Source: Muribaculaceae bacterium (GTDB lineage Bacteria; Bacteroidota; Bacteroidia; Bacteroidales; Muribaculaceae). Taken from it: 64,000 nt of DNA. Location of the stretch: positions 2-64,001 of the forward strand of contig JAQVCR010000013.1 in the NCBI GenBank assembly GCA_028689665.1, read 5' to 3'. Below the pieces are notes generated by a model that saw only the letters and a program-made list of their open reading frames with translations, did not search any database and was not told where the DNA came from. Below, piece by piece: positions 3,812 through 21,004 of the stretch. Numbering within the stretch: the first letter of the stretch is position 1; every line of letters starts with the position of its first letter. The translations under genes were made by a program, and so were the position numbers.

Positions 3812-3839
3812 TTAACTGTGCACACAAAATTGATATAAT

Positions 3840-4562
3840 ATGAGCAACGAAACGATAGCCTCCATACTTGATTATACTGAAAAGCACCGTAATTTCAGTA
3901 TAAAAGACTTGTTTGCCTATCTTCATGAAATGATTGGTATAAATAAATCATCCTTGTCATGGTATCTGTTCAAGCTCGTAAATGATAACGTGTTGGTCAG
4001 GACCGGGCGAGGAATGTATGCCAAAGCGATAAAACAGTCCTTTGCTCCTAAGCCAATAGATGAAGTGAAAGATATATATGATTTATTGCAGGTCAATTTT
4101 CCGTTTGCTAAATTTTGTATCTATCAAGGAGAGATTATTGCTCCTCTGCAACATCATCTTTCATCTAACCGTATCATCTATGTGGAAACAGACAGAGACT
4201 CAGCAGAAACCGTTTTCAATTTTTTGAATGACGGGAAGCGTGATGTCTATCTGCGACCTGATAAGGAAATAATATACCGGTATGTGGATATGGATAGCCG
4301 TACTTTCATTGTGAAAAATCTTGTTTCGGAAGCTCCATTGCAAAAGATATTAGGTGTTACTATGCCCACACTGGAGAAACTAATTGTGGATATATTGAGA
4401 GATACTGACTTTTTCTATTTGCAAGGCAGTGAAAGCAACAATATCATAGAAAATGCCTTTACTTTTTACACTGTCAATCAAAGCCGACTTTTCAGATATG
4501 CCGGCAGGCGTAAAGTGAAAAAGGAATTATCGTCAATTTTAGAAAATATGAATATTCAATGA
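3840..4562 (+). CDS. AbiEi-like antitoxin / wHTH transcriptional regulator (type IV TA)
   Basis: The N-terminal wHTH-like region ends in LVRTGRGMYAK (AbiEi-type rGvY motif). An ATGA overlap joins it to the downstream AbiEii-like ORF. Confidence 0.6.
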   Translation: MSNETIASILDYTEKHRNFSIKDLFAYLHEMIGINKSSLSWYLFKLVNDNVLVRTGRGMYAKAIKQSFAPKPIDEVKDIYDLLQVNFPFAKFCIYQGEIIAPLQHHLSSNRIIYVETDRDSAETVFNFLNDGKRDVYLRPDKEIIYRYVDMDSRTFIVKNLVSEAPLQKILGVTMPTLEKLIVDILRDTDFFYLQGSESNNIIENAFTFYTVNQSRLFRYAGRRKVKKELSSILENMNIQ

Positions 4563-5632
4563 TAAAGAAAGAGTGTTTTACGACAGAATGGATCGAACAT
4601 GTCTCATCTAAACTGCATTACAATGACAAAAACCTCATTGAAAAGGTAATCCGTGCATTGTCGTTGCTTGAAATGCTGGTCAAAGCCGGATGTCCCTTTG
4701 TTTTCAAAGGCGGAACTGCCTTGATGCTTATACTCGGAAAGTCTGCCCATCGTCTGTCCATCGACATTGATGTAATTTGTCCACCCGAAACCAACGTTGA
4801 AGATTATTTGAAATCTTTTGCCGATTTTTGATTTATTTACCTCGAACTTGTGGAACGCAAGCAACGAAACAATGCGGACATACCCAAAAGTCATTCTAAG
4901 TTTTTCTATCAGATAGCTTACCAAACCGATGCGGATGCGCAATCTTATATTCTGCTAGATGTACTGTACGAGGACATTCATTATTTCCATACCCAGAAAA
5001 TAGCCATAGACAGTCCATTAATACAACGAGAAGGAGAGCCGTTGATGGTAACAGTGCCTTCCACAGAAGATATTTTGGGCGACAAACTTACTGCTTTCGC
5101 TCCAAACACGACCGGAATACCTTATTACAAAAACGGCAGATCCTGCTCTATGGAGATTGCAAAACAGCTTTATTACGTGGGCAGGTTGTTTGAAAATGTT
5201 TCAGACCTGCAGATTACCACGCAAGCGTTCCGCAAAATTACGGCTGTAGAACTTTCATACCGCTCTTTGGTAACAGATGCAAGGCAGGTATTCAACGATA
5301 TTCGTCAGACTGCGCTCTGCATATCCACACGAGGAAAAGCCGGAAATGGGAATTATGATTTGATGCAAGATGGTATCATCCGTGCAAAATCATTTATGTA
5401 CAAGCAACGTTATCTGATAGATGATGCCATTATTGACGCTGCAAGGACGGCTTACTTAGCCACGCTGATTGAAAAAGGGATCACTGATATAGAACATTAT
5501 TCAAAAAATCCTGCTGATATAAAAGATTTGATCATTCAACCATCACTGACAAATAAGCTGAATAAACTGAAAAACAATCTGCCGGAAGCCTACTATTATT
5601 GGGCAAAAACGAGTGAGATACTGGAAGCATAA
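4559..5632 (+). pseudogene. nucleotidyltransferase AbiEii/AbiGii-family toxin interrupted by an in-frame TGA at 4829-4831
   Basis: Carries the motif FKGGTALMLILG...RLSIDIDV. ORFs 4559-4831 and 4850-5632 are in the same frame (both positions are 2 mod 3). The joined reading is ...KSFADF*FIYLELVERKQRN.... Confidence 0.7.
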
Positions 5633-5901
5633 GATTATTAAAATTTCGTGTACTATTTAATTCCGTATCTTATTCTCAATACTTTGATGAGTCATTTTAA
5701 TCTTAATTTTGTCGCCAATAAAATATTTTTGGCGACAGATTCAATGCAAATATACTATATTCAGGGAGACCTCAAAAATAAATTGCCAATTTTAAATATT
5801 CCATGTATTTACACATTCTGCTTACTGATATACTCATTTATATTTGGCAATCCAATCAGGCTTACCAATCTCCATTTTTCTTTCTAAATAGGGCTAGAAT
5901 C

Positions 5902-5940
5902 AAGTGTCCGGCTGCTTCGCTGAGAAGTAGCCGGACACTT
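5902..5940. terminator. 12-bp perfect hairpin between convergent genes (aagtgtccggct ... agccggacactt)
   Basis: Inverted repeat read directly from the sequence. There is no clear U-tract on either side. Confidence 0.5.
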
Positions 5941-5960
5941 TGTAAATATGGTAATAGATT

Positions 5961-8342
5961 TTATTTCACTATAATTTTCTTACCGCGGTTATCGTCGATA
6001 GCAACGATATATGCTCCGCTAGGCAAAGCTATAAATGTCTTATTTGCCGATACGGCAGCTCCTGCCACCTTTACAGCATCGAGTGAGTAGACTGCAACGT
6101 TTGCATTGTCGGCACACTCAACCACCACGCCATCGGCAGTAGGATAAACATCCCATTTGTCGCTATTTATCGAAGCGACCGAAGAGTAATCGGAAATTGA
6201 AATATCGTCGATATTAAAACGTTTACCCTCAGTCTTAACTATCTTAAAGCGAACTTGTCCGTTAATGTTTGCAGGCACAGAATGCTGAGTAAGGATAGTT
6301 TCGGTAATGGCAACTTCGCTGAGCAAAGTCCAATTTTGACCACCATCGACAGAATACATTACGTTAACCTTGGCATCAACGTCGGTGCCAAATAATGCTG
6401 CATAGAATGAGAAAGTGCCGGCTCCGTTAAGTTTGTCTTCAGCCATAGCCAATGAGCTGTCGGTTGCTTTACCAAAACGAGCTGCAAGAGCATCGTTGCG
6501 ACGAGGATCGTCCCATACACCTACTTCTTTGAAGTCCCATTTGCAAGCACGTCCGTCCATGATAGAATTATAATATCCACCTTGTTTTACAGTTTCAAAA
6601 TCTTCGAAGAAAGAGCGAGGAGCAGCAACAGTAGCTTTTAAGTCGGCATCTTCTCCGGTTAAAGTAGGAGTAGAAAGCGCAACGCTGCCAAAATATACAC
6701 CCTCTTTATCAATCTTCTTGCTGCGAATATAGAAATGTTCGCCCTCAGCGTTGATAGAAACCGATGACGACCAATTCTGTTTGTCAAGGCTTGCCTCGAA
6801 TTCGCCGGTGATAGTTGCAGTGATCTGCTCGGTAACATATTCGGTGTATACTTCTATATCAATAGGCTCGGCAACCTCACCGGGTAGAGAGTTGAAATTC
6901 AAACCACTTTCGGGATAGATAAGAGTAAGCACCGGAACGGGATCGGCAGTGCGAACTTTCACTACATTAGAAGATATAGTACCATTGGTGAGCGAATAAG
7001 AATAATCTGTGCCGGGTTGTAGTCCGGTTATAGTAGAGCTTTGAAGAGATGCTGCAACTTGTACAGGATAACCCGAAATTTGAGTAACTCCGTCGGCAGT
7101 GAATACATTAAGAGTGTAATTTCCACCGCTTACGTCGAGCCAATTAGCATCGAAGCGATCGGTAGATACATTAGTAGCCTTTAGCGCAGGAATACCATCG
7201 TAGGTAACAGCTTCAAGATTTACTTTTACACTAACCTCGGCACTGCTGATAGTAAGCACTGCCGAATGAGAGCCTGCAGTGGCACTTGTGTAAGTAAGTG
7301 CAAGATTAGCACCGCTAGTACTATTCACAGCATCTTTTGCAAGAGTGGAATTAGCCACAACGAAATGAGAATCTGAAATGCTTACATTAAGGTCTTGAGT
7401 GAGAGCAGTACCCTTAACAAGAATGTTGTGAGCTATGGGCTTGCTGATTGAAGTGATACCCATATCCACTTTTTGGTCGGCAACGGGAGTATAGATCACA
7501 GGATCGACAACGCCACCGGGCACCCAGCCTTCGTTTTTCTTATTACCCCACACATATTCGGCAAGTTCGGGATAGTCGATATATGGGTTTCTGTTTTTCT
7601 GATAGCCGTATACAACCTCGTTACGATTAATTTCTTTTTCGCTTACAGGGTCTTCACGATGCCATTTAAGGAGCAAGTTTAATGCCCACGAAGCATAACA
7701 AGGATAGCTGTCATGCGAAAGCATAGGACTATTCCAGCCACCAATTTTGTCTTGATAAGCCGAAGCCATATAGAAATAAGTACGGGCAAAGTCGCCTTTA
7801 TATTCATCAACCGGTTCAAACACAGTGCCTGAATATCCGGGGAATGTACAAGCTCCTAACTTTCCAAGAGCTTTAATATTTCCGTTAGGCGAAAGAGTAG
7901 TACCATTCTCGCACTCACCATAAGGATAATTACTGCGTTGACCATTCACCTTGCCGTCGGTAGGATAAATGTGATAAGCGTCGCTATACATTGGTGTAGC
8001 ATCGTTAAACCAGCTCTTAGGGAAAGAGTGTTCGCGATTATAGCAATCGCCAACTTGAGTATAATTTCCACATTGTTTCTGCCCCGGAACAAAATTTGCT
8101 GTAGAATACATATCCCACACATATTTGTCGGCGCGTACATCTGAAGTTAAATAAACTGTCCATAGTCCTTTGTAACTCACTGCGGTGTGAGGCCCTACAA
8201 TTGCATTAAGGGCGGTAAGTAATGCTTTTTGGCTTTTTCCTTCTGCCGACTTATAGAAATCGACCGGTGCTTTTGCCGAGACTTGAAACAAGCCGGTCAA
8301 AGCAATAATCAATGGCAAAAAGCCATGAAGAAACTTTTTCAT
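5961..8342 (-). CDS. secreted endonuclease I family nuclease with Ig/FN3-like modules and T9SS C-terminal sorting domain
   Basis: Has a signal peptide and the endonuclease-I motifs NREHSFPKSWF and YHIYPTDGKVNGQRSNYPYGE. The C-terminal tail ...LPSGAYIVAIDDNRGKKIIVK is typical of T9SS cargo. Confidence 0.8.
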   Translation of the reverse strand: MKKFLHGFLPLIIALTGLFQVSAKAPVDFYKSAEGKSQKALLTALNAIVGPHTAVSYKGLWTVYLTSDVRADKYVWDMYSTANFVPGQKQCGNYTQVGDCYNREHSFPKSWFNDATPMYSDAYHIYPTDGKVNGQRSNYPYGECENGTTLSPNGNIKALGKLGACTFPGYSGTVFEPVDEYKGDFARTYFYMASAYQDKIGGWNSPMLSHDSYPCYASWALNLLLKWHREDPVSEKEINRNEVVYGYQKNRNPYIDYPELAEYVWGNKKNEGWVPGGVVDPVIYTPVADQKVDMGITSISKPIAHNILVKGTALTQDLNVSISDSHFVVANSTLAKDAVNSTSGANLALTYTSATAGSHSAVLTISSAEVSVKVNLEAVTYDGIPALKATNVSTDRFDANWLDVSGGNYTLNVFTADGVTQISGYPVQVAASLQSSTITGLQPGTDYSYSLTNGTISSNVVKVRTADPVPVLTLIYPESGLNFNSLPGEVAEPIDIEVYTEYVTEQITATITGEFEASLDKQNWSSSVSINAEGEHFYIRSKKIDKEGVYFGSVALSTPTLTGEDADLKATVAAPRSFFEDFETVKQGGYYNSIMDGRACKWDFKEVGVWDDPRRNDALAARFGKATDSSLAMAEDKLNGAGTFSFYAALFGTDVDAKVNVMYSVDGGQNWTLLSEVAITETILTQHSVPANINGQVRFKIVKTEGKRFNIDDISISDYSSVASINSDKWDVYPTADGVVVECADNANVAVYSLDAVKVAGAAVSANKTFIALPSGAYIVAIDDNRGKKIIVK

Positions 8343-8386
8343 AATGTCTTTTGTATGATAATTTAGTAGTTAAGTTTTAAGTTTGG

Positions 8387-9427
8387 TCAGTGCTTGCTTT
8401 TTCCTGCCAGCATACCACAAGCAGCCATAATATCTTCGCCTCGGCTGCGACGTATCGTACATATCAACCCGCGAGAATTAAGAAACTCACGAAATTGAAT
8501 CATCTTTTCGGGTGTTGAAGGCATCAACTTGACTCCCGGTATTGAATGAAATTTAATCAGATTAACCCTCGCACCGGTGCGACGCAATAATTTAGCCAAA
8601 GCCTCGGCATGCTCAAGGTCGTCGTTAAGATTGTTCCACATTATATATTCTACCGACAGACGGCGTTGATGTGCAAAGTCATAATTTTTTAGTAATTCTA
8701 CCACATCGGCTATGGGATAAGCATTCTCGACAGGCATAAGCGATAATCGCTCGGTGTGATAAGGGCTGTGAACGCTGATTGCTATATGGACACTGCTCTT
8801 CTCGATAAGTCGCTTTAAATTATCGAGCTTGCCTATCGACGACACTGTGATGCGCTTAGGACTCCAACCAAATCCCCACTTTGCGGTGAGTATCTCGATG
8901 GTTTTCATCACTGCATCATAATTATCCATTGGCTCGCCCATCCCCATAAACACTACATTGGTGAGCGACTGCGATTGTGGCACGCTTACTATCTGATTGA
9001 GTATTTCATTAGCCGAAAGATTTCCATGAAAACCTTGCTTTCCTGTCATGCAAAACAAGCAATTCATCTTGCATCCTTTCTGCGAAGATATACACAGAGT
9101 GGCGCGATCGTCTTCGGGAATATAGACACTCTCAACGGCATTGCCATCGCTCGATGAGAATAAATATTTTATCGTGCCATCGGCACTGCTCGATTGTGTG
9201 TCGGCCGACGTACAGCCAACACAATATTTAGATGTTAAGCGATTTCGTGCTTCTTTCGAAAGATTTGTCATCTCTTCAATAGTCGAAACTCGCTTTTCAT
9301 ATATCCACTTAGCTATCTGGGCTCCTTGAAATGCGGGAAGTCCGTTGTCGGTCGCTACCTCTTTTAATTCGTCGAGGTTAAGTCCCATTAAAGGGATTAA
9401 ATATTGACTTTTGTCGTTGTTGACCAT
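8387..9427 (-). CDS. rlmN: 23S rRNA/tRNA (adenine-C2)-methyltransferase RlmN (radical SAM)
   Basis: Radical-SAM cluster motif CKMNCLFCMTG, plus the RlmN-like N-terminal domain and the C-terminal ACGML. Confidence 0.85.
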   Translation of the reverse strand: MVNNDKSQYLIPLMGLNLDELKEVATDNGLPAFQGAQIAKWIYEKRVSTIEEMTNLSKEARNRLTSKYCVGCTSADTQSSSADGTIKYLFSSSDGNAVESVYIPEDDRATLCISSQKGCKMNCLFCMTGKQGFHGNLSANEILNQIVSVPQSQSLTNVVFMGMGEPMDNYDAVMKTIEILTAKWGFGWSPKRITVSSIGKLDNLKRLIEKSSVHIAISVHSPYHTERLSLMPVENAYPIADVVELLKNYDFAHQRRLSVEYIMWNNLNDDLEHAEALAKLLRRTGARVNLIKFHSIPGVKLMPSTPEKMIQFREFLNSRGLICTIRRSRGEDIMAACGMLAGKSKH

Positions 9428-9452
9428 TGTAATTTTTTTAAAGCAAAGAGTG

Positions 9453-9460
9453 CAAATTTA
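9453..9460 (-). promoter_or_regulatory. Bacteroidetes -7 box (TAAATTTG on minus strand) upstream of rlmN
   Basis: Matches TAnnTTTG about 25 nt upstream of the ATG at 9427. Confidence 0.5.
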
Positions 9461-9601
9461 CTGCTTTATTTTGTATATTCCATAATTAGTAGATAAAGAT
9501 TTTTGAATATTTGTTAATATATACATATACCAACCCGGCATAAGCAAGAACACAAAAAGGTTAATGTAGGTTAATTTGCTGTTGTTTAAGCTATTTCGTA
9601 T

Positions 9602-9609
9602 TATCTTTG
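9602..9609 (+). promoter_or_regulatory. -7 box TATCTTTG upstream of LruC-domain gene
   Basis: Matches TAnnTTTG about 40 nt upstream of the ATG at 9651. Confidence 0.55.
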
Positions 9610-9650
9610 TACCGGAAATAGTACTATTTAATACTAAAAGACTATATAAA

Positions 9651-10766
9651 ATGAAAAAATTATTCTTATTATTCGCACTAGTATCATTGCTAGCATCTTG
9701 TGTTGAAAAAATAGAAGATGGAGGAAACACAAAAACAATTGAAGTTTCTTACGACGCAATTCGTCCTTTGACTGAGATGACAGTCGAAGCAAAAGAGGGT
9801 TACATTACTCATGTAATTCAAAGCGCAGACACTCTAGCCTCTCTTACACAGACCACTCGTATATTAGTCCCCAGAAGTCAAAAATCGACTGCCAACAGAG
9901 CAGCCGAAGACATAAAAATATCCTACGAGTCAATGAGCAGCACCAGCACAACTAACGGAGATACAATGAAAAATCTTTATGTGCTTATGTTTGAAGACTC
10001 TAAAGGTAATAACGACAACGACTACAACGACGTAATTATTCACGTTCGCCAAACTCTTAATAAGCTCAAAACCGGAGTAGAGATGAAAATAGAGCTTCAG
10101 CCGGTAGCGATGGGTAATACACGCAAAATGGGATTTGGTTGCGATGTGTATATCCTTGACGCTAACAACAACCTCGTTAAATCGGCAGAATTTATATTTA
10201 CAAACGATATCAAAGTCGATTATTTCAAAGTAAACGACGTGCTTAAGATGATCAACACTTATTCTTATGGTCGTCCTTTGAATGGATATCCTACTTTATC
10301 TACTAAAATAGTTTCGGGTAAAGATTTGATTACCGGTGCTGAATACTCGGCTTTGAACTACCGAGCAAACGGAACGGGATTCTTGCCTCAAACCATTGAA
10401 AGCACCGATATTATTTATATAAATTGGTTTATTCAGAATGATAAAGGCGAGAAATGTTACACCGTGCCAAGCTATAAATCAGACACCCTAGATTGGCTTT
10501 CTGAAGCCGGATATCCAATTGGATTGCTTATTTCCGACATTAGTGAAGCTATATATAAAGATTCTGAAGGTACTGCATGTGGAAAAGACTGGATTAACTA
10601 CCCTTCTGAGGGCGTGAATATTGAAAAAGTATTCCCCGGTTTCACATCATGGTTACAAGGTACAAGTGTAGCTCCCGATTTCACAAAACCGGTAGATGGA
10701 ACATATATCGATGCTATTACAAATTATGGTGGCGTTTCGCTATACGATATGAAATATTTCAAATAA
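9651..10766 (+). CDS. LruC-domain (DUF4842) lipoprotein
   Basis: The start is moved to MKKLFLLFALVSLLASC (lipobox). The motif MFEDSKGNNDNDYNDVIIHV resembles the LruC DYDFNDxV core. Confidence 0.65.
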   Translation: MKKLFLLFALVSLLASCVEKIEDGGNTKTIEVSYDAIRPLTEMTVEAKEGYITHVIQSADTLASLTQTTRILVPRSQKSTANRAAEDIKISYESMSSTSTTNGDTMKNLYVLMFEDSKGNNDNDYNDVIIHVRQTLNKLKTGVEMKIELQPVAMGNTRKMGFGCDVYILDANNNLVKSAEFIFTNDIKVDYFKVNDVLKMINTYSYGRPLNGYPTLSTKIVSGKDLITGAEYSALNYRANGTGFLPQTIESTDIIYINWFIQNDKGEKCYTVPSYKSDTLDWLSEAGYPIGLLISDISEAIYKDSEGTACGKDWINYPSEGVNIEKVFPGFTSWLQGTSVAPDFTKPVDGTYIDAITNYGGVSLYDMKYFK

Positions 10767-10805
10767 AGATATAATATACTGCGAAAACAACACACACAAT
10801 AAATA

Positions 10806-10849
10806 AAGGAGCTACAAATCCAATTAGACTTGTAGCTCCTTATTTTTTT
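10806..10849 (+). terminator. intrinsic terminator (aaggagctacaa / ttgtagctcctt followed by T-run)
   Basis: A 12-bp stem followed by attttttt, 40 nt after the stop codon. Confidence 0.8.
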
Positions 10850-10890
10850 ACCCATCTGCACAAAGCGACAAATCGCACAGCAACCCCATC

Positions 10891-10970
10891 AGCCATAGTG
10901 CCGTTTAAGCCCTAGGACAGCACATAACCGAGATTTTGCACCCCGAAGTGGGCGCCACCTCGCACACAGC
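10891..10970. repeat. copy B (5'-shortened) of the three-copy intergenic element
   Basis: Its 3' 60 nt are close to identical to copy C, differing at a handful of positions by eye. It lies between two terminators of convergent genes. Confidence 0.8.
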
Positions 10971-11004
10971 CTCAAAAAAAAGAAGATGCGTCAAAACTAC
11001 TCTT

Positions 11005-11051
11005 AAAAAAATTACCCTCGCTACGACTATCTGCAGCGAAGGTAATTTTTA
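11005..11051. terminator. bidirectional hairpin (aaaaattaccctcgc ... gcgaaggtaattttt) downstream of GHL10 gene
   Basis: The stem has one mismatch and is flanked by an A-run on one side and a T-run on the other. Confidence 0.6.
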
Positions 11052-11105
11052 ATTTATAAAGGCTTTTATACGCAATTCAATATCATCAAACAGAATATTA
11101 TTCTA

Positions 11106-12599
11106 TCACAATTCACATTCCAGTTTCACACCGTTCATACTCTCGTTGTTAGCACGGTCGATAGCCGTAACTACAAAAGTTTTATCGCCCTTCAGTCCAC
11201 TAGGTATTACAAACAATGGCACATAACTCACACCAATAATGGCACGTGAATCATCAAGACTAATTTTGCTACCCTTATCGAAGCAATAAATTGCAAATGA
11301 ATGTTGCTCTTGCAAAGCATCGACAGTATTCACTTTCGTCCACGATAATATCGACTTATCATCTTGCTTAACAAGCTTGAGATCTTGCACCATGGCAGGC
11401 GCAACCGAATCGATCCACGGATACGACGGAACAAGCGCAATTGTAGATTGCTGATTAGCAGCAAGCGAATCGGCTACATTCTTAAAATTTCTTGTAATTG
11501 AATATGCAGGCCACCAACAATTTCCCTGAATATCAGGCAACTCACGTGTAAGATTAATCTTGTGCGCAAGCTGATTAGCATCGGTCGACGGAGCAAGGTC
11601 GGGTTTATCCATCGTCTTCATCACATCTTGACCAATATACATGTGTCGCCTGTTAGCATTATCATTCCACCACTTAACCAGCGTCAACGACGATGCACGA
11701 GGATGCTCAAGCTCCCAATAAAGCTGAGGAAGCATATAATCTACCCACCCCTTCTCAGTCCAAAGAATCACATTCGCATAAAGATCATCATAATTTGTAA
11801 GAGCATTCGTATCACTGCCCTTCGGGTCTGATTTCTGATTACGCCACACTCCAAACGGACTAATTCCAAGTCTTACCCACGGCTTAATTGCCATTATCGA
11901 CTTATGAAGCCCCTCGATAAGCTGATCGACATTATTACGTCGCCAATCGCCTATCTCCATACCATTACCATACTTTTTATACGATGCCTTGTCGGGAAAA
12001 TCCTCACCTTTAGCCGGATAAGGATAGAAATAATCGTCCATGTGGATAGCATCGACATCGTAACGCAAAATAATATCCTCTACAACTTGCTCGATAAACT
12101 TACGATTCTCCGGAAGTCCCGGATCGAAATACATCTTGCCATCATACATCACAAAACGCTTAGGCTCTTTGTGATACAAATGATTTGCAGGCAACTTCTC
12201 ATTCTTTGAACACGTTACACGATAAGGATTCAGCCACGCATGAAGCTCCATGCCGCGTGCATGCGACTCCTCAATCATAAACTGCAAAGGATCCCACATA
12301 GGACTCGGTGCAACACCCGCTTTCCCGGTAAGATGTCGGCTCCACGGCTCCAACTCCGAAGGATAAAGCGCATCGGCTTGAGGACGCACCTGAAACACAA
12401 CAGCATTAACACCCGCCGCCTTAAGTTTATCCAACTGGTCGCGAAGATAAGCCTTATTCTCAGCCGTCGACTGCTTAGCATATTGCCCCTGAAAGACAGT
12501 ATGCATCCATGCCCCACGAAATTCGTGCTTAGGATTCTCTGCAATTGCGCCAACACTCACAGCGGCAAAAGCCAAAAATGTCAAAATAATTTTTCTCAT
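11106..12599 (-). CDS. glycoside hydrolase-like 10 (GHL10/DUF187) family protein, secreted
   Basis: The start is moved to MRKIILTFLAFAAVSVGAIA (ATG at 12599). The 39 upstream codons are translation of the tandem repeat. Carries the motif EFRGAWMHTV...VVFQVRP. Confidence 0.7.
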   Translation of the reverse strand: MRKIILTFLAFAAVSVGAIAENPKHEFRGAWMHTVFQGQYAKQSTAENKAYLRDQLDKLKAAGVNAVVFQVRPQADALYPSELEPWSRHLTGKAGVAPSPMWDPLQFMIEESHARGMELHAWLNPYRVTCSKNEKLPANHLYHKEPKRFVMYDGKMYFDPGLPENRKFIEQVVEDIILRYDVDAIHMDDYFYPYPAKGEDFPDKASYKKYGNGMEIGDWRRNNVDQLIEGLHKSIMAIKPWVRLGISPFGVWRNQKSDPKGSDTNALTNYDDLYANVILWTEKGWVDYMLPQLYWELEHPRASSLTLVKWWNDNANRRHMYIGQDVMKTMDKPDLAPSTDANQLAHKINLTRELPDIQGNCWWPAYSITRNFKNVADSLAANQQSTIALVPSYPWIDSVAPAMVQDLKLVKQDDKSILSWTKVNTVDALQEQHSFAIYCFDKGSKISLDDSRAIIGVSYVPLFVIPSGLKGDKTFVVTAIDRANNESMNGVKLECEL

Positions 12600-12630
12600 T
12601 AGATTTATAATAATAGTTGTTCGTTCAAAT

Positions 12631-12910
12631 AGCATCTGCATTACATCTGCAATACATCTGCAATACATCTGCAATACATCTGCATAGCATCTGCATAGCA
12701 TCTGCGAAAATAACAATTAATAGCCATTCACAATAAAGCATCTGCATAGCATCTGCATTACATCTGCGAAAATAACAATTAATAGCCATTCACAATAAAG
12801 CATCTGCATTACATCTGCATTACATCTGCATTACATCTGCGAAAATAACAATTAATAGCCATTCACAATAAAGCATCTGCATAGCATCTGCGAAAATAAC
12901 AATTAATAGC
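12631..12910. repeat. higher-order tandem array: runs of 11-nt units catctgca(tta/ata/tag) separated by a constant 33-nt block
   Basis: There are four blocks holding 6, 2, 3 and 1 full 11-mers. Each block ends in catctgc followed by gaaaataacaattaatagccattcacaataaag. Counted directly from the sequence. Confidence 0.95.
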
Positions 12911-12964
12911 ACAACTACCAAATCAAAAATTCACACGAATAGACATCACCACACCATTCCGCTA

Positions 12965-13146
12965 TCTAAATTCTAAATTCCACATCCTACATTCCACATC
13001 CTACATTCTACAATCCACATTCTAAATTCCACATTATAAACTCAACATTCTAAACTCCACATTCTAAATTCTACATTCTAAATTCTAAACTCCACATTCT
13101 AAATTCTACATTCTAAATTCTAAACTCTACATTCTACATTCTACAA
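12965..13146. repeat. 26 perfectly phased heptanucleotide repeats (tctaaat/tctacat/tccacat/tctaaac variants), G-free
   Basis: 182 nt equals 26 x 7 with no indel. There is no G on the plus strand between 12962 and 13147. A 35-nt super-unit is repeated twice (13056-13090 and 13091-13125). Confidence 0.95.
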
Positions 13147-13250
13147 AGCCACAGCGTGGCAACACCCTCCATAGCCTAGGACTTTTAAGCCCTAGGACAG
13201 CACAGAACCGTGATTTTGCACACCGAAGCGGGTGCCACCTCGCCCACAGC
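13147..13250. repeat. copy C of the three-copy intergenic element
   Basis: See copy A. It contains small hairpins gccac-agc-gtggc and cctagg-N10-cctagg. Confidence 0.8.
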
Positions 13251-13332
13251 AACAAGCACGCCAGAAAACATACAAAATTAAATAATCAGCACAAAAAAGG
13301 CATAAACAAATTGCGAATTCCCAAAAATTAGC

Positions 13333-13340
13333 TACCTTTG
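13333..13340 (+). promoter_or_regulatory. -7 box TACCTTTG; candidate promoter of the polysaccharide operon with ~600-nt leader
   Basis: Matches TAnnTTTG, with a partial -33-like aTTG 19 nt upstream. I saw no other match between it and the ATG at 13946. Confidence 0.45.
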
Positions 13341-13489
13341 CAATTAATAAAAAATACATATTTCTGTGATAGAGATAAGTAAAAAAGACGAAGGGCAAGA
13401 CAATAATCGAAAAACCACTAACACACAGCAAGTTACAACTAGCCGTGTCCCCCTCTAGTCCCAACAAAGTCCCAAAAACCTCTACACAA

Positions 13490-13779
13490 AAAGCCCCCAA
13501 AGCCCCAAAAGGACAAGCAAAGCAAGCCCCCAAAAAGGCAAAAAGCCCAAAAGCAACCCCCAAAAAGGACAAGCAAAGCAAGCCCCCAAAAAGCAAAAAG
13601 CCCAAAAGCAACCCCCAAAAAGGACAAGCAAAGCAAGCCCACAAAAAGCAAAAAGCCCAAAAGCAACCCCCAAAAAGGACAAGCAAAGCAAGCCCCCAAA
13701 AGGCAAAAAGCCCAAAAGCAACCCCCAAAAAGGACAAGCAAAGCAAGCCCCCAAAAGGCAAAAAGCCCAAAAGCAACAA
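13490..13779. repeat. five tandem 55-56-nt A/C-rich units inside a 298-nt T-free tract
   Basis: The marker ggacaagcaaagcaagccc recurs at 13511, 13567, 13622, 13677 and 13732. There is no T on the plus strand from 13484 to 13781. Confidence 0.95.
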
Positions 13780-13945
13780 GATAAATCAGGATAAATAAAG
13801 ATAGAAACGTTGCAACAAAAACAGCAACGCACAACCCCGCCACGCCCAAGCTCAACAAAATTGTAGCAAAATCGTAGCACAACTCCTTATGCGCCCAAAA
13901 ACACAGCGCAGGCAACACCAGCAAATAAGAACAATCACAACAATA

Positions 13946-14917
13946 ATGGAAACAGTATTAGTAACCGGCGGAGCAGGCTTCATAGGCTCCAACCTATGCG
14001 AGGAACTCCTCGCCCACAACTACACAGTGAGATGCCTAGACAATTTTTCGACCGGTCATCGCTATAATATCGAGCCTTTTTTAAGCAATCCTAATTTTAC
14101 GCTTATCGAGGGTGATATTCGCGATCTCGACACTTGTCGCAAGGCTGTTGATGGTGTAGATTATATTTTACATGAGGCTGCTCTTGGCTCTGTGCCTCGT
14201 TCGATCAAAGACCCTATTACGACAAATGAAGTTAATATTGGTGGCTTTCTAAACATGATTGTTGCGGCAAGAGATGCTAAGGTGAAACGCTTTGTTTACG
14301 CAGCTTCGTCTTCTACCTATGGCGATTCTAAGTCGCTTCCTAAAGTGGAGGATAAAATTGGTCGTCCTCTGTCGCCTTATGCCATTACAAAATATGTCGA
14401 CGAACTTTATGCCGACGTTTTCGCTCGCACTTATGGAATTGAGTGTATCGGGTTGAGATATTTCAATGTTTTTGGTCGTCGCCAAGATCCAAACGGAGCT
14501 TATGCCGCAGTAATTCCATTGTTTGTAAAGAAATTTATCAGCCATGAATCGCCTACTATTAATGGCGATGGCGAGTATTCTCGCGATTTCACTTATATCG
14601 CCAATGTGGTGCAGATGAATTTGCTCGCAATGACTGCCCCTGCCGGCAGTGAGGCAGTTAATCAAGTGTATAACACTGCTTTTGGCGAGCGTACCACGCT
14701 AAACCAGCTTGTGGGATACTTAAAGGAAAATCTTGCTCAGTTTGATGGCGAGATTGCTAATGTTGAAGTTGTGCATGGACCTAATCGTTTAGGCGATATA
14801 CCTCACAGCTTAGCCTGCATTGATAAAGCAAAAAAACTACTAAGTTATAATCCTAAATATTCTATGCGCGACGGTCTACGTGAGGCTTGTGAGTGGTATT
14901 GGGAAAATCTAAAATAG
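13946..14917 (+). CDS. NAD-dependent nucleotide-sugar 4-epimerase (WbpP/TviC-like)
   Basis: The start is moved to [17 protein letters not shown] (Rossmann GxxGxxG). The protein is SDR-like with a YxxxK motif and is paired with a TviB/WbpO-like dehydrogenase. Confidence 0.75.
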
Positions 14918-14976
14918 AAAAATCATTATATGGCAAGCCATATATAAATAATAAACACCGAAAGAAAGTAAGAATA

Positions 14977-16245
14977 ATGGAAAAAGAAATTAAAATTGCC
15001 GTTATTGGTTTGGGTTATGTAGGACTTCCTCTTGCACGCCTATTTTCAACAAAATATAAAACTGTTGGCTTCGATATGAACCAACGCCGTGTAGATGCTC
15101 TTATGGCAGGACACGATGCCACACTCGAAGTAAGCGACGAACTGCTTCAAGGTGCTATTGCAAATGGTTTCGTTTGCACCACCGATCTAGATGCAATTCG
15201 CGATTGCAACTTTTATGTAGTCGCAGTGCCTACCCCTGTCGATGAAGATCATAAGCCCGACCTTACTCCTCTATATGGCGCAAGCGAAACTGTGGGCAAA
15301 GTGATAGGTGCAGGCGATATTGTAGTGTATGAATCTACAGTTTATCCGGGCGTTACCGAAGACGAATGCCTTCCTGTTGTAGAGAAATTTTCCGGACTCA
15401 AATTTAATAAAGACTTTTTTGCCGGCTATTCACCCGAGCGCATCAATCCCGGCGACAAAGTGCATACAGTAGAGCATATTAAGAAAATCACTTCGGGAAG
15501 TACTCCTGAAATCGGGAAGATTGTAAACGAAGTGTATTCATCAGTAATCACTGCAGGAACTCACCTAGCTCCAACAATGAAAGTAGCCGAAGCCGCAAAA
15601 GTAATTGAAAACAGTCAACGCGACATAAACATAGCATTCGTAAACGAACTTGCAAAGATTTTCAATCTAATGGGAATCGACACCGAAGCCGTACTCGAAG
15701 CAGCAGGCACAAAATGGAACTTCCTTCCATTCCGACCCGGGCTGGTAGGCGGACACTGTATTGGCGTTGACCCTTACTATCTTGCTCAATGCGCCGAGCG
15801 TTATGGCTATAATCCCGAAATCATACTCGCCGGACGACGAATGAACGACGGAATGGGCGCCTATGTAGCACAGCAAGTAATCAAATTGATGATAAAGAAA
15901 GGCATACAAGTACTAGGCTCGGAGCTTTTGGTTATGGGATTCACGTTCAAAGAGAATTGCCCAGACGTACGTAACACAAAAGTCATCGACATTATTCGCA
16001 AGCTCAACGAGTACGATATAAACATCACGATTTGCGATCATTGGGCAAATCCCGCCATTGCTCACCGTGAGTATGGTGTGAATATTGTCAACGAGTTGCC
16101 ACAGGGGAAACGCTTTGACAGCGTGGTGATGGCAGTGGCTCACCGAGAGTTTGAAAACATAGATATTCAGAGACTTCTCAAGCCAACATCGGTGCTTTAT
16201 GATGTGAAATGGGTGCTAAACGGAGATGTTGATGGAAAGTTGTAA
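14977..16245 (+). CDS. UDP-N-acetyl-hexosamine 6-dehydrogenase (TviB/WbpO-like nucleotide-sugar dehydrogenase)
   Basis: The start is moved to [21 protein letters not shown] catalytic-Cys region [11 protein letters not shown] is present. Confidence 0.75.
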
Positions 16246-17407
16246 TGTAAATAATAAATTAAATATAGCATCTTCAAAGACTTGTACAGGTTGTATGTCT
16301 TGTGTCGATGCTTGTAAATTCGGCGCATTATCTTCTAAGTTTGATAAAAATGGATTTTTAATGCCAAAATTTGATAGTTCAATATGCAACAACTGTCATT
16401 TATGTGAAAAGTCGTGTCCTATTACTAATAAAACATTCGAAAAAATAGAAAAATATGAATCAAAAGCGTATACTTGTTGGTCAAATGACTTAAACTCAAG
16501 AAGACTAAGCGCATCAGGAGGTGCTTTTGCTTGTTTTGCAAAAAAAATAATAGAAGATGGTGGTGTAGTATTCGGTGCTAAAATAGAAAATAGTTATGTC
16601 AAGCATACGTGTATTGATAAAGTAATGGATATACCAATAATTCAAGGATCCAAATATCAACAAGGAAATTTAGAAGGAACATATAAAGAGGTTGAACGGT
16701 ATTTAAAAAGAGGTAAAATTGTCTTGTTCTCAGGAGTTCCGTGTCAAATAGGAGGGTTAAAAGGTTATCTTAGAAATAAAACATACGATAATCTTTATAC
16801 CGTAGATTTAATTTGTTCTGGTTTCCCATCTGCTCTACCTATGAAATTATTTTTGAATGATAATAAAGACATTTCACACATCATCTCTTTTAGAGATAAA
16901 TCTAACGGTTGGAAAAGTCGAAATTATGAATACACTCTAAAAGCTAAAATGAAAGATGGTAGCATAAATAATTACGGGTATAAGAACTTACCAATTCTCT
17001 CTTTTGGTAGTAAATCGACTTGCAGATATTCCTGTGGTAATTGCAAATTTACTGGTTGGAATAGGATTTCAGATATAACAATTGGAGATATGTGGGGCGA
17101 TGTAAATTACAAAGAAGAACATTATAATGGGTTATCATTATGTATCACACACACTTTTAAAGGAGAAAATTTACTGAATAATAGTAATATCACCAGTCAT
17201 AATACAACGTATGATGAAGCTATTAGATGTAACAAACCATTAGTAGATGGTAAAAGATATTTTAAATATAATTTGTTTAGAATTTTTATGGGAATTTTAT
17301 ATAGAAATTTATCATCACAAAAAATAAGCAATATATATTTAGGTAAAGGGTTGCTGGGATTTATGTATAAGGTAAATACAAAGTTAATAGAAATAATAAT
17401 GAGATGA
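16226..17407 (+). CDS. FrhB-like (coenzyme F420 hydrogenase/dehydrogenase beta-subunit family) 4Fe-4S protein
   Basis: Two CxxCxxCxxxC(P) clusters occur at the N-terminus. This family is typically paired with a pyruvyl transferase in polysaccharide loci. Confidence 0.6.
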
Positions 17408-18459
17408 AAATAAATTTACTTACAATGCATTACTCTTTAAGCATTGGAGCTACATTACAAACCTATGCAACTTGTCGCATTCTTGAAAAAATGGGGCACG
17501 AAGTTACGATTATTAACTTTAAGGACAAGGTCGAATTAAAAAGAAGAAAAAGTATAAAATATTGGCTTTCAAGTGGAACTACAAAAATTTTGTTCGAATT
17601 ATTCAAACAAAAACATTTTCCAAAAAGGACAAAAGAGATTTTTCATATTGATTATGAAAAATTACCTAAAGCAGATCTATATATATCAGGAAGTGACCAA
17701 ATATGGAATCCTCATATAGTTGATGAAAATCTGCCTGTGTATATGTTCAACTTTATTCCAGATAATATTAAAAGGATCTCCTATGCATCGAGTTTTGGTG
17801 TAAATAAATGGGAACAAGACTCAGAAACGACACAACAAGTTCAAAATTTATTATCCAAATTCTCACATTTGGCCGTAAGAGAAGATACTGGTGTAAAGTT
17901 TTGTACAGATATTTTTAAATTAAATGCAAAACAAGTTTTAGATCCAACATTACTAATAGATGATTATTCAAATTTGATTGGAAATATTAGATTAAAAGAT
18001 GAAATAGTTTGTTTTAAACTATCTTTAAATAATGATTTCTACGATAGTGTTGCATATATAAGAGGGATACTAAAAATAAAAACAGCATTATTACACACTT
18101 TGATACCATCAAGAAAATTTGATAAAAATTACTTCTCTCTATTCGAATCTCCAATAAAATGGATGAGGAGAATTGCTTCTGCAAAATTAGTGATTACTGA
18201 TTCATTCCATGGATTGGCCTTTTCTATTATATTTAAGAAAAATTTTATTGTTCTTGCTGGCGAAAAAAATAAAACAACTCGTTTACTGTCTTTATTGAAT
18301 ACGCTTGGATTGAATGAGAGATATTTTGATTCTTATGAGAGTTTGAGAAAAAACAAAAATATTTTGGTTTCTGACATAGATTATAATAATGTTAATAGTA
18401 TATTAGAAGAAAAGAAAAAGGAATCATTACAATACTTACGTAATTCCATAATAAAATAA
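17404..18459 (+). CDS. polysaccharide pyruvyl transferase
   Basis: Has the SGSDQIWNP motif and an ATGA overlap with the upstream gene. Confidence 0.7.
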   Translation: MKINLLTMHYSLSIGATLQTYATCRILEKMGHEVTIINFKDKVELKRRKSIKYWLSSGTTKILFELFKQKHFPKRTKEIFHIDYEKLPKADLYISGSDQIWNPHIVDENLPVYMFNFIPDNIKRISYASSFGVNKWEQDSETTQQVQNLLSKFSHLAVREDTGVKFCTDIFKLNAKQVLDPTLLIDDYSNLIGNIRLKDEIVCFKLSLNNDFYDSVAYIRGILKIKTALLHTLIPSRKFDKNYFSLFESPIKWMRRIASAKLVITDSFHGLAFSIIFKKNFIVLAGEKNKTTRLLSLLNTLGLNERYFDSYESLRKNKNILVSDIDYNNVNSILEEKKKESLQYLRNSIIK

Positions 18460-18464
18460 ATTTA

Positions 18465-19982
18465 ATGGAATCATCTAACAAGATAGGCAATATTCTAATT
18501 CTTAAGAATACAACTACGTTGTATTTTAGAATGATTTTAGCCTTGTCAATCTCATTATATACATCAAGAATAATATTACAGAATCTCGGCGTTACAGATT
18601 TTGGTATATATAATGTAGTCGGAGGTTTTGTAACAATGTTTGGATTTATAAATGGTGCAATGGTATCATCAACAAGAAGGTATATTACATTCGCCATAGG
18701 AACGAACAATGCTTATGAAATAAAAAAAACTTTTAGTTCTAGTTTTTATATACACTTGGCAATAGGCCTAATTGTATCCGTTTTTGCTTTATTTTGTGGT
18801 GAATGGTTTATTTCAAACAAAATGAATCTACCGCCTGAAAGAATTCATACAGCACATATAGTATTATATTTTTCTATTACAACTATTTTTTCATTATGTG
18901 TAACTGTACCTCACAATGCAATGGTAGTAGCTCATGAAAAGATGGGAACATTTGCTCTAATATCCTTATTCGATGTATTTCTAAAATTAATAATTGCTAT
19001 ATTTTTAAAATATACAGAAAATGACAAATTATTAATATACTCGTTCTTGTTGATGTTAGTGTCAATACTTGTAAGATTAATGTATGTGGTATATTGTCAT
19101 ATAAAGTTTAGTCATATTAATTATAGACTATATAAAGACAAAGTCTTGTATGTGAAAATGATTACGTTTGCAGGGTGGAATTCATTTTCAGCATTATCCG
19201 TATCAGGGTATCAACAGGGAACGAATATGTTACTAAATATATTTTTCTCTCCAGTTATTAATTCTGCCAGGGCAATATCTGTTCAAGTACAAGGGTTATC
19301 ATCTATGTTCATCTCTAATTTTCAACAAGCAGTTGACCCTCAAATAACCAAAAATTACGCTGGTGGAAATATTGAAAGATTTATAAATCTTATATTTATA
19401 AATTCAAGATTGTCTTTCTATCTATTTTTTATTATTGCAATTCCCATTTTTTTTGAAACACATTCGCTATTAAATTTTTGGCTAGGGACATACCCTGAAT
19501 ACACTGTTAGTTTTATTAGATTTTCACTAATAATAAGTATTTTTGATACTATGACCAATGGCTTAACAGTGGCCGTCTTGACTGTCGGGCAAATTAAAAA
19601 ATATCAATTTTTTTCAGGCATAATTCAATTGATGATTCTACCAAGTTCTTATATGATGTTAAAATTTGGTGGTTCTCCTAATTCCGTTTACATAATAAAT
19701 ATTTTTATTGTTATACTTTTATTTTTATATAGAGTTCGTACTGCTTGTAGAATTATCAATATTAATCAATCTATATACTTAAAACAGATTTTTTTGCCAA
19801 TAATTAAGATATTTATTATAAGTGCAATGTTCTTATATTTTTTTAAGCCTTTATTGAATCATACCAACACTATATTCAATATTATATTCTATATAATCTC
19901 TACAATTATAATAATATATATTGTAGGACTTAATAAACAAGAAAGAAAAACTATTGTAACTAAAATAAAACAACTTATATGA
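18465..19982 (+). CDS. wzx: oligosaccharide flippase (Wzx / MOP superfamily)
   Basis: A polytopic membrane protein of about 500 aa in a polysaccharide locus. Confidence 0.65.
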   Translation: MESSNKIGNILILKNTTTLYFRMILALSISLYTSRIILQNLGVTDFGIYNVVGGFVTMFGFINGAMVSSTRRYITFAIGTNNAYEIKKTFSSSFYIHLAIGLIVSVFALFCGEWFISNKMNLPPERIHTAHIVLYFSITTIFSLCVTVPHNAMVVAHEKMGTFALISLFDVFLKLIIAIFLKYTENDKLLIYSFLLMLVSILVRLMYVVYCHIKFSHINYRLYKDKVLYVKMITFAGWNSFSALSVSGYQQGTNMLLNIFFSPVINSARAISVQVQGLSSMFISNFQQAVDPQITKNYAGGNIERFINLIFINSRLSFYLFFIIAIPIFFETHSLLNFWLGTYPEYTVSFIRFSLIISIFDTMTNGLTVAVLTVGQIKKYQFFSGIIQLMILPSSYMMLKFGGSPNSVYIINIFIVILLFLYRVRTACRIININQSIYLKQIFLPIIKIFIISAMFLYFFKPLLNHTNTIFNIIFYIISTIIIIYIVGLNKQERKTIVTKIKQLI

Positions 19983-21004
19983 ATGAAAAAGTATGTGTAA
20001 CTACATATGTTTGGGGAGATAATTATCAGTTATACATTCCTATAGCTGTATTCTCTATGAAAAAAATGTATCCTGAGTATGATATAATAATATTTTTGCA
20101 CAGTAGCCTTAATCCTGAGTTAAAAAAAATATTAATTCAATTAGATCTGTTCGATAAAATCGTAATAAAAGAAAACACATTTGCCAATTGTCCTAATATG
20201 AATAAATATAAAGCAAAAGCTTTTAGATGGGTGATATGGGATGAATTGTTTTTTAATTATGATTATCTTTATACAATTGATATTGATATGTTTTATATAA
20301 AGGAGCCATTACCTCTTCATAAACAACATATTTATCATATGGAAAATGTAACTAAGTTGCCTTTTGATAATATGAGGAGATTTCAAAAGAGAAATGCTTT
20401 AACTTTAAAAGAAAAAATAGTGAGCTCTCTTGCGTGTAGTAAGAATTTTGGCGTTTTTAAAGCTATTAAACATTATAAATATATCTATAATGATATAAAC
20501 AAGCTATCAGGTCTGCATTTTGTAGATATAAAAAAATATTATTATATTGTTAATAAAGAGGTTTTAAAAGCAAATGAAAAGAAGATTTTTGATGGTACTT
20601 TCTTAATTGATTCACCTGTATTAAGTGATGAATGTTTCCTTTATAAAATGCTTAAGAATGTAAATATAAATGTAGATATTTTGGATCAACAGGATTTTGG
20701 ACCAGGGTTTAAGCACATGGACTTTAATAATTATAATAAACCATTGTTTAGACCTGTACATGGAATACATTTAGGAGATTTCAGAAATGACACACACATA
20801 AAAAAAGAAAATGATAATCTTGTTTGTTATGATTATTATAAAAATTACTTTATTGACTTTCTGCTTAACGATAACGATTTTACAAAATTTCTATCTTTAA
20901 TAAACAACCAATCTAAGCTATATTTTAAACGTTACTTTGATTATGCTGTGATTGACTTGGCAAATTATTCTAATATCAAAATAATTTTAGATGAAATCAT
21001 ATAA
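19979..21004 (+). CDS. hypothetical protein, possibly GT-A-fold glycosyltransferase
   Basis: Supported only by locus context and a DxD-like TIDIDMF. I did not recognise a family. Confidence 0.3.
   Translation: MNEKVCVTTYVWGDNYQLYIPIAVFSMKKMYPEYDIIIFLHSSLNPELKKILIQLDLFDKIVIKENTFANCPNMNKYKAKAFRWVIWDELFFNYDYLYTIDIDMFYIKEPLPLHKQHIYHMENVTKLPFDNMRRFQKRNALTLKEKIVSSLACSKNFGVFKAIKHYKYIYNDINKLSGLHFVDIKKYYYIVNKEVLKANEKKIFDGTFLIDSPVLSDECFLYKMLKNVNINVDILDQQDFGPGFKHMDFNNYNKPLFRPVHGIHLGDFRNDTHIKKENDNLVCYDYYKNYFIDFLLNDNDFTKFLSLINNQSKLYFKRYFDYAVIDLANYSNIKIILDEII

Follow-up and report, generated by a model that had tools for sequence, protein, structure and literature searches.

Three tandem-repeat arrays in a putative divergent promoter region at the head of a Muribaculaceae polysaccharide operon

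INTRODUCTION

How does the gap between two divergently oriented bacterial genes come to be 1346 nt long and to carry three different tandem-repeat arrays, two of which lack one of the four bases, and do these arrays do anything for the genes on either side? The question is raised by positions 12600–13945 of a 64 000-nt stretch of contig JAQVCR010000013.1 (Muribaculaceae bacterium, assembly GCA_028689665.1), which we call the window; it covers nearly all of a contig of 64 059 nt that was assembled from the metagenome of an uncultured gut bacterium. Pfam scan and sequence place a lipoprotein-type GHL10 gene (PF02638) on the minus strand to the left of this gap, with its ATG at 12599, and on the plus strand to its right an NAD-epimerase gene, with its ATG at 13946, which is the first gene of a Wzx/Wzy polysaccharide operon. 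A preliminary description, made from the letters of the sequence, had presented the gap as built almost entirely of arrays, unusual in density and variety, at a place where polysaccharide loci are commonly controlled, and had thereby implied a regulatory role for the arrays.

Here we argue that familiar mutational processes, at work in a region of a familiar kind, explain the gap best. The reading that we favour, with a little better than even confidence, is an ordinary two-way promoter region swollen by three expansions of the variable-number tandem repeat (VNTR) type, the arrays themselves having no sequence-specific conserved function. The same degree of confidence applies to the whole reading of the gap as a real, lineage-specific and non-coding divergent control region.

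RESULTS

Arrays of 11-mers, heptamers and 55-mers together span 767 of the 1346 nt (57%), or 65% of the gap when a three-copy element described below is added. The three arrays of the preliminary description are present, but 'almost entirely' overstates their share. The individual arrays, the element, a -7 promoter box and a T-free tract that it had listed were all recovered in place or within a few bases, and the strong A/C richness reported for the plus strand rightwards of about 12911 was borne out, with A+C reaching 73% across 12911–13945.

The array nearest to the operon is a T-free tract of 298 nt on the plus strand (13484–13781), in which Tandem Repeats Finder (TRF) finds a period of 55 nt, 5.0 copies, 97% matches and a score of 513. 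It consists of one diverged unit followed by ~4.5 near-identical units, and because the units vary at three sites only, the expansion is recent. Each unit can be parsed into words of the form CnAmG (CCCCCAAAAAG CAAAAAG CCCAAAAG CAA CCCCCAAAAAGG ACAAG CAAAG CAAG), and the cycle C>A>G>C accounts for 86% of run-to-run transitions in the tract compared with at most 61% in shuffles. Since the tract is built of such words, its lack of T is probably inherited from a short T-less seed that was amplified stepwise.

A strand without T can hold neither a stop codon nor an ATG, and all frames of the tract are therefore open through composition alone. This bears on another reading, in which the tract encodes a Lys/Pro/Gln-rich, histone-H1-like basic protein (plus-strand open reading frame (ORF) 13445–13798, 117 aa, GTG start) or in which a minus-strand ORF is a real gene. 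Such ORFs do exist and the translation is highly basic; moreover, the NCBI accessions of the flanking proteins (MDD2961532.1 and MDD2961534.1) differ by 2, a numbering which implies that the depositor annotated one coding sequence (CDS) inside the gap. However, composition opens all six frames, the sole start codon is GTG, and the 55-nt period shifts the frame with each unit while the DNA stays 97% identical. None of the periods 7, 11 and 55 is a multiple of 3, and the ORFs of the gap gave no Pfam match even at E ≤ 1. We thus find a coding function hardly credible. The CDS call is probably spurious, as the candidate ORFs (13445–13798 and others within 13192–13924) are open only by lack of T (or A).

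The heptamer array, of TCYAMAT type (12962–13147, no strand assigned), was delimited by TRF periods of 14 and 35, repeat family D2, base counts and a census of units. It is a 186-nt run that lacks G on the plus strand, and hence C on the minus strand. Its 26 units comprise 8 variants (TCTAAAT ×7, TCCACAT ×6 and others) and show a higher order of 14, 21 and 35 nt; its plus-strand RNA has a predicted minimum free energy (MFE) of 0. Its purity is limited, with 83% matches and longest pure stretches of 2–3 units. About 7 distinct substitutions, none of them to G, suffice to derive the variants from TCTAAAT, and a G-free seed of seven letters is unremarkable. The array starts directly at the UUUGUAGA tail behind the terminal hairpin of the three-copy element, and another copy of that element, at 3640, has a similar flank, which suggests that the array grew in situ by slippage from this U-rich tail. 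Heptamer-type intergenic arrays may be a recurrent, unstudied feature of the order Bacteroidales: shorter ones occur in other metagenome-assembled genomes (MAGs) of the order, at L028 110–305 (AGAAATT/AGATTTT/AGAGGGT, C-free over 84 nt) and L066 9690–9850 (AACCTTA ×12). Three viral contigs (L129–L131) hold 3–4 heptamers each, which we judge compatible with chance for low-complexity tandem motifs.

The third array (12629–12911, no strand assigned) is made of 16 11-mers that read GCAGATGnnnn in the minus-strand sense, that of GHL10. Their blocks hold 7, 3, 4 and 2 units, and the blocks alternate with an invariant spacer of 29 nt (ATTGTGAATGGCTATTAATTGTTATTTTC), present in three full copies and one partial copy. 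TRF reports periods of 11, 33, 62 and 73, and the repeat families D4 and D5 and an explicit parse support the same layout. The alternation of blocks and spacers produces the periods 62 and 73, whereas period 33 belongs to the proximal block only; thus the 11-nt array of the preliminary description stands, but its 33-nt higher order gives way to one of 62/73 nt. A unique A/C-rich linker (12912–12961, no strand assigned), in which no repeat is reported, separates the 11-mers from the heptamers.

On its other side the 11-mer array adjoins the start of GHL10. Its last unit is followed, in the minus-strand sense, by 29 nt up to the ATG (12600–12628, from sequence and parse), and this segment is the likely site of GHL10's own short 5' untranslated region (UTR). 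At 12628–12635 on the minus strand, GCTATTTG resembles a -7 box minus one base and, judged by this likeness, might serve GHL10 as such.

Arrays of this kind could be binding sites, with the 11-mers and perhaps the heptamers occupied by a transcription factor or nucleoid protein that controls GHL10 or insulates it from the promoter core. The 16 copies of an invariant GCAGATG core recur at 11 bp, near one helical turn, so that the sites would lie on one face of the DNA; the array ends 29 nt from the GHL10 ATG, beside the -7-like sequence, and the constant 29-nt spacer repeats along with the blocks. However, perfect tandem phasing is equally a product of slippage, relatives of GHL10 have no such array, and no regulator gene is adjacent, a MarR-family gene being 18 kb away. 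The only other occurrence of the 11-mer, three units on a viral contig, is compatible with chance. We consider a binding array improbable.

Two further readings of the 11-mer array were rejected. The 29-nt spacer is not a duplicate of the GHL10 proximal promoter, as its alignment score was not above those of shuffles. The array is not a CRISPR either, because its 29-nt 'spacers' are mutually identical, its 11-mers are directly tandem and Pfam scans gave no cas domains. The viral units just mentioned are three tandem copies of GCAGATGCTAT, identical to the 11-mer of the window (contig L128, 3461–3489), upstream of a small-terminase-like gene and adjoining a long inverted repeat. This match is probably a coincidence, since chance suffices for a tandem low-complexity motif.

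How far do these runs exceed what chance and related genomes produce? When the window was shuffled 200 times, no G-free run exceeded 72 nt and no T-free run 41 nt; when the gap's own composition was shuffled, the limits were 90 and 76 nt. Among 80 related Bacteroidales loci (~0.9 Mb) the longest run free of any one base was 89 nt. These loci held no genuine 200-nt stretch with at least 75% A+C, whereas the window has two such regions, at 13363–13948 and, inverted, at 29802–30203. The A/C skew that L056 and L063 seemed to show was an artefact of masking with N; at L056 9280–9570 and L063 3560–3790 the N runs are flanked by direct repeats of ~40–70 nt and look like masked repeat arrays. In ~0.96 Mb of related Bacteroidales DNA, arrays with TRF scores above 100 occur about once per 50–60 kb and are shorter. 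The claim that the arrays are unusually dense and extreme therefore holds, nothing comparable being found in that DNA. The kind of feature is not unique, as the shorter arrays in L028 and L066 illustrate; its density and extremity here are.

Comparison with relatives of the flanking genes points in the same direction. Among the 15 billion proteins of a large collection, both flanking proteins stand as singletons, the nearest GHL10 relative being 73% identical, and exact-protein look-ups with GHL10 (497-aa and 536-aa forms) and with the 323-aa epimerase gave no match. The nearest GHL10 genes (L001–L003, 67–73% identical) have short upstream regions, other neighbours, no synteny and no array. 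The closest loci with the epimerase paired with a UDP-glucose dehydrogenase (UGDH) gene show 85–87% identity and fall into two groups. In L112 and L120–122, upxY (NusG, PF02357) and upxZ (PF06603) lie directly upstream of the gene pair, while L113, L114 and L123 have a plain intergenic region of 380–420 nt with a TAnnTTTG box ~230–260 nt before the ATG (TACCTTTG in L113, TAACTTTG in L114 and L123). Thus the gap does sit where relatives place control of the polysaccharide locus, as first proposed. None of the examined relatives of the epimerase–UGDH loci has arrays, a metagenome scan with the 55-mer core gave 0 matches, and blastn of the whole gap against plasmid and phage collections gave none. 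By sequence, the arrays are private to this lineage among the loci compared. A side observation concerns four independent Logan contigs (L115, L117, L118 and L119) with epimerase P0127, all of which start 1 nt before the start codon; this suggests that, in another Muribaculaceae lineage, the head of this conserved pair is a recurrent point of assembly breakage or a recombination junction.

What remains of the gap beside the arrays has the features expected of a two-way promoter region. Only two exact TAnnTTTG boxes, the Bacteroidetes-type -7 motif, occur in its 1346 nt, and they stand back to back. One of them, TACCTTTG (13333–13340, plus strand), faces the polysaccharide operon and has an ATTG 19 nt upstream as a possible -33 element. 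The other, TAATTTTG (13273–13280, minus strand), which was absent from the preliminary description, faces the three-copy element. It is the sole exact minus-strand box and lies 670 nt from the GHL10 ATG, while the heptamers lie between the 3' hairpin of the element and the upstream region of GHL10.

The copy of the element in the gap (~105 nt, 13144–13252, minus strand) was defined by alignment, nhmmer and consensus fold, and the other two copies are at 3634–3740 and 10869–10972. Its core CCGAAGYGGGYGCCACCTCGC occurs three times against 0 expected. A search with nhmmer, which also covered ~1 Mb of fetched related loci, returned the three window copies only (E from 6e-32 to 8e-26). No match was found in Rfam, and the 31 matches of a metagenome scan for the core are all due to chance, inside one GC-rich coding gene. 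The consensus folds better on the minus strand (-28.6 kcal/mol) than on the plus strand (-16.0 kcal/mol), into three hairpins; compensatory changes preserve G-U pairs and the terminal hairpin, which is followed by UUUGU. Moreover, in two of the three copies an exact minus-strand -7 box precedes the core by 28–29 nt, namely TAATTTTG at 29 nt and TAGTTTTG (10992–10999) at 28 nt, although the intervening sequence differs. These data make the element a candidate lineage-specific gene for a small structured RNA of ~120 nt with its own promoter on the minus strand, a lead drawn from three copies. The divergent gap at 3185–3839 repeats the layout of minus-strand gene, T-poor A/C-rich tract, element copy and plus-strand gene. 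Its A/C-rich tract (~3400–3640) includes CAGAAACA repeats, and the two components appear to travel together.

Other functions that a long intergenic region might have were searched for in the gap. There was no match to DnaA boxes (TTATCCACA) with up to one mismatch in 12600–13945, which speaks against an origin of replication. Rfam 15 gave no match at gathering score and chance-level ones only at E up to 10, ARAGORN found no tRNA or tmRNA, and a scan for sigma-70 promoters and terminators scored no higher than shuffles. No inverted repeat of at least 10 nt surrounds 13273–13340, none of at least 40 nt occurs anywhere in the window, and the promoter is thus not an invertible one; no recombinase gene was found near the gap among the Pfam-scanned proteins of the window.

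Transcription starts were placed by the known geometry of Bacteroidetes promoters. From the box TACCTTTG, the operon would have a 5' leader of ~600 nt (13347–13945, plus strand), about half of which is the 55-mer array. Without the array the leader would be ~300 nt, to be compared with ~230–260 nt in L113 and L114; with regard to an ops-type pause site and pause hairpin, its motifs bear only a weak resemblance to those two leaders. The leader is composed of 49% A, 29% C, 15% G and 8% T. Its predicted MFE (-0.127 kcal/mol/nt) is weaker than in all of 60 random 600-nt control windows (-0.215 ± 0.031), no terminator-like site was found on its plus strand, and a continuous bubble of C>G extends over 613 nt (13372–13984; mean C minus G 12.6 per 78 nt).

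These properties raise the possibility that the A/C-rich, U-free leader was selected as a platform for Rho loading, similar to a Rho-utilization (rut) site, or for control of processivity, with the number of 55-mers setting expression. As the operon encodes no UpxY/UpxZ pair in cis, its transcription through ~600 nt of untranslated, unstructured C>G RNA would hinge on the activity of Rho or on a NusG paralogue acting in trans. Rho-dependent terminators are described above all by their C>G skew and low structure (PMC6144790), no intrinsic terminator is present on the plus strand, relatives place the antiterminator gene upxY and the inhibitor gene upxZ at exactly this position, and it is in the leaders of capsule operons that Bacteroides recruits UpxY (PMC11213015). 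On the other hand, YC dimers at regular spacing, (YC)N9–13, are not enriched: the motif starts 1.7 times per kb in the leader, while the window as a whole has 1.5 starts per kb on its plus strand and 1.2 on its minus strand. The A/C skew does not track the direction of the two putative divergent transcripts; it extends to the left past the divergent promoter, into a part whose RNA would be C-free and anti-rut, and a related array at 29939–30066 is opposite in orientation relative to plus-strand transcription. The arrays are missing from relatives, and the rut rules were derived in Escherichia coli and Salmonella, not in Bacteroidota. Pfam scans gave no protein with PF02357 or PF06603 in the window, so that upxY itself is missing; tblastn with UpxY and UpxZ of L112 and L120 reached a best E of 0.5 only and blastn gave no remnant, and a match to upxZ of L112 seen by eye (ACCCCGCC..ACGCCCA) did not hold up. 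We regard a selected Rho platform as unlikely. The regulatory role that the preliminary description had implied for the arrays is thus unsupported, given their absence from relatives, the explanation of the missing bases by seeds and a skew that ignores transcript direction.

Repeats of this kind are also where a short-read assembly may go wrong, by taking a false path through the array, so that copy numbers, order or the junction of GHL10 with the polysaccharide locus would be incorrect. The data are short reads and the species is a singleton with no second genome. The Logan assembly of run SRR22315505, from which a 342-aa reading of the epimerase ORF is also recorded, breaks at 12651 and 13748, so that there is no independent copy of 12652–13747, and the order of this interior and all copy numbers come from the MAG assembly. 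The right-hand break falls where k = 31 predicts it for the 55-mer: Logan contig L126 equals window 13748–29829 at 100% identity and starts in the last 55-mer unit, at the very position where 30-mers become unique. Contig L127 equals window 4053–12651 with one mismatch and ends in the second 11-mer.

However, both outer array junctions are thereby reproduced base for base, and the read graph contains the arrays as true repeats. Unique sequence lies on both sides of each array (12912–12961, 13148–13483 and from 13782 onwards), the three arrays share no unit, and a false join would need other loci with the same arrays. The distinguishing single-nucleotide polymorphisms (SNPs) of the 55-mers are 55–60 nt apart and resolvable by 150-nt reads, and the interior is coherent, with element copy and -7 box spaced as at another locus. 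An artefact of this kind is therefore improbable, as is, within it, a false join of GHL10 to the polysaccharide locus. The break at 12651 is too weak a sign from which to read heterogeneity in the population, as the contig ends at 4053 and 29829 are also unexplained by repeats of the window.

The operon downstream of the gap belongs to a Wzx/Wzy cluster that starts with the epimerase and extends to 29725, and whose products include a UDP-sugar dehydrogenase, a pyruvyl transferase, a flippase, a Wzy-like polymerase, glycosyltransferases, an aminotransferase and an initiating sugar transferase. The GC content of its interior (16000–24000) is 26–29%, compared with ~37–42% in the flanks; such a value is typical of serotype-specific cassettes that are exchanged horizontally, and suggests one here. 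At the distal end of the main biosynthesis cluster, and outside the gap, stands the related G/T-rich array mentioned above (29939–30066, no strand assigned). TRF finds periods of 15 and 23, the plus strand is A-free over 120 nt, and the array is the reverse complement of the CnAmG word class of the 55-mer. Its local alignment with the 55-mer region scores 59 against 26 ± 5 in shuffles, with a longest exact match of 11 nt. This array (wider region 29802–30203) has a sugar-transferase gene on either side; a terminator-like hairpin precedes it and a -7 box (30171–30178) follows it.

It may be asked whether these two arrays form a DNA-structure element or recombination hot spot, in which i-motif or G-quadruplex (G4) arrays, as an inverted pair flanking the 16-kb cluster, promote exchange or inversion of the cassette. 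The same word class does stand inverted at both cluster ends, the distal array (29937–30094) is strongly G4-prone, with a G4Hunter score of 2.36 against a threshold of 1.5 and a G3+N1–12 motif, and the low GC of the cluster interior (~40% in flanks) suggests a transferred cassette. However, an exact inverted match of 11 nt is too short for homologous inversion, the promoter has no flanking inverted repeats and no recombinase gene is nearby. The gap itself is not a canonical G4 element: it has no G3+N1–12 motif, G4Hunter reaches 1.5 in it at 13438–13518 only, and over most of the 55-mer array the score is below 1.2. We consider this reading very improbable.

Two other features of the window were noted. 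At 62760–64000, a minus-strand ORF of 536 aa (62388–63998) contains at least 7 tandem repeats of 138 nt (46 codons) with 60–75% identity; it is a repeat-domain protein unrelated to the non-coding arrays. At 3840–5632, a DUF6577 gene is followed by a gene for an AbiEii-family nucleotidyltransferase toxin, a pair that looks like a type IV toxin–antitoxin or abortive-infection system.

DISCUSSION

In our favoured reading of repeat expansion in an ordinary divergent promoter region, three independent VNTR- or minisatellite-type expansions would have inflated the gap from ~580 bp to 1346 bp, by slipped-strand mispairing and unequal recombination of short seeds. The bases missing from the arrays would be those that the amplified seeds lacked, a G-less 7-mer in one case and T-less CnAmG words in the other. 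The leftward -7 box would drive the ~120-nt structured RNA of the three-copy element, and the rightward one the Wzx/Wzy operon, here without the upxY/upxZ that its closest relatives carry. The 55-mer array, lying inside the predicted leader, would about double its length. We infer the slippage origin, the transcription starts and any effects on expression.

Under the same reading the arrays may still tune expression, through leader length or access of Rho. If they act, they would do so as spacers of variable length: a longer leader that is U-free, C-rich and nearly free of structure would offer Rho a larger stretch of untranslated RNA, and GHL10 would stand further away from the divergent promoter core.

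Several points weigh against this account. A single 64-kb contig has four low-complexity arrays, when the ~0.96 Mb from relatives has nothing comparable, and this is more than a neutral background rate would give. The non-repeat parts of the leader are also A/C-rich, with 15% T and 14% G compared with 31% and 18% in the window, and such a composition, together with an RNA less structured than all 60 controls, hints that composition was selected. The biosynthesis cluster is bracketed by two arrays that belong to one word class and are inverted relative to each other. Moreover, slippage is deduced here from the sequence of a single genome. There is also a more ambitious hypothesis, to which we assign a low probability: the three-letter arrays, variable in length, would have been selected to take over control from UpxY/UpxZ in this lineage. 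The U-free CnAmG leader would then be a tunable platform for Rho or an RNA-binding protein, and cells would differ in capsule-operon output according to unit number; the sister array, being inverted, would delimit an exchangeable polysaccharide cassette, and the divergently transcribed three-copy RNA would tie the switch to other loci.

Which reading applies matters for Muribaculaceae, a dominant and poorly studied family of gut bacteria. If the arrays vary within populations, the gap would be the first worked example in this family of repeat-driven tuning of a capsule operon, and it would offer a route to capsule heterogeneity outside the logic of invertible promoter and UpxY/UpxZ in Bacteroides. 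If the arrays are mutational debris, they still show that low-complexity arrays break short-read assemblies at the heads of polysaccharide loci, and that tracts depleted of a base can mislead automatic annotation into calling spurious ORFs.

Comparison with known systems can help to place the gap. Polysaccharide operons that were acquired horizontally can have rut regions in their long leaders (PMC6144790, PMC12360218), and these regions share with the gap an uninterrupted C>G skew, very low predicted structure and untranslated RNA upstream of a long operon. Of the features that define them, a C>G bubble of at least 78 nt and little structure are present here, whereas the YC spacing is not enriched; the rules come from enterobacteria, and our leader is predicted from sequence.

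In Haemophilus influenzae, the hmw1A and hmw2A promoters, examples of simple-sequence contingency loci by which expression is graded, contain 9–28 units of a 7-bp repeat, and more repeats give less transcript (PMC2424069, PMC8262952). A heptanucleotide array upstream of a gene for a secreted or surface protein, here of 26 units, is common to both, and by analogy hmw is a plausible model for a non-coding array that acts as a volume control. However, with 8 variants and 83% matches the heptamers of the gap are far from pure, and impurity lowers slippage rates; moreover, the host is a gut Bacteroidales rather than a host-adapted pathogen with such known phase variation.

Closer in phylogeny are the control heads of capsular polysaccharide loci in Bacteroides, with an invertible promoter, an opsX leader whose sequences are locus-specific, and upxY/upxZ (PMC11213015). 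The position directly upstream of the first biosynthesis genes and the long leader between promoter and gene are the same, but our gap has neither upxY/upxZ nor a remnant of them, no inverted repeats surround its promoter, no recognizable ops-type pause element was established, and a tandem array dominates the leader. The K-antigen locus of Porphyromonas gingivalis has a 5' non-coding region of ~1.4 kb with 77-bp inverted repeats, which is co-transcribed as a leader, is transcribed bidirectionally and includes a non-coding RNA, the antisense RNA asSuGR (PMC8757827). Its size of ~1.4 kb and its place at the head of a Bacteroidales capsule operon are those of our gap. The long inverted repeats form a hairpin there, whereas tandem direct repeats are found here, with no sequence similarity and with an RNA that is only predicted.

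The nearest likeness in kind is to bacterial intergenic VNTRs and minisatellites, such as the mycobacterial MIRU-type loci with units of 40–100 bp. These are defined by polymorphism in copy number, whereas the present arrays are known from one genome; the units are not dispersed in the window, their word class recurring once only, and the combination of three unrelated arrays in one gap with extreme base exclusion differs from such loci. What they have in common is head-to-tail units of 11–55 bp in non-coding intergenic DNA, near-identical copies that imply recent expansion, higher-order structure and broken short-read assemblies. Five copies of a 55-mer at 97% and 16 copies of an 11-mer with a 62/73-nt higher order, both non-coding, are units of just this type.

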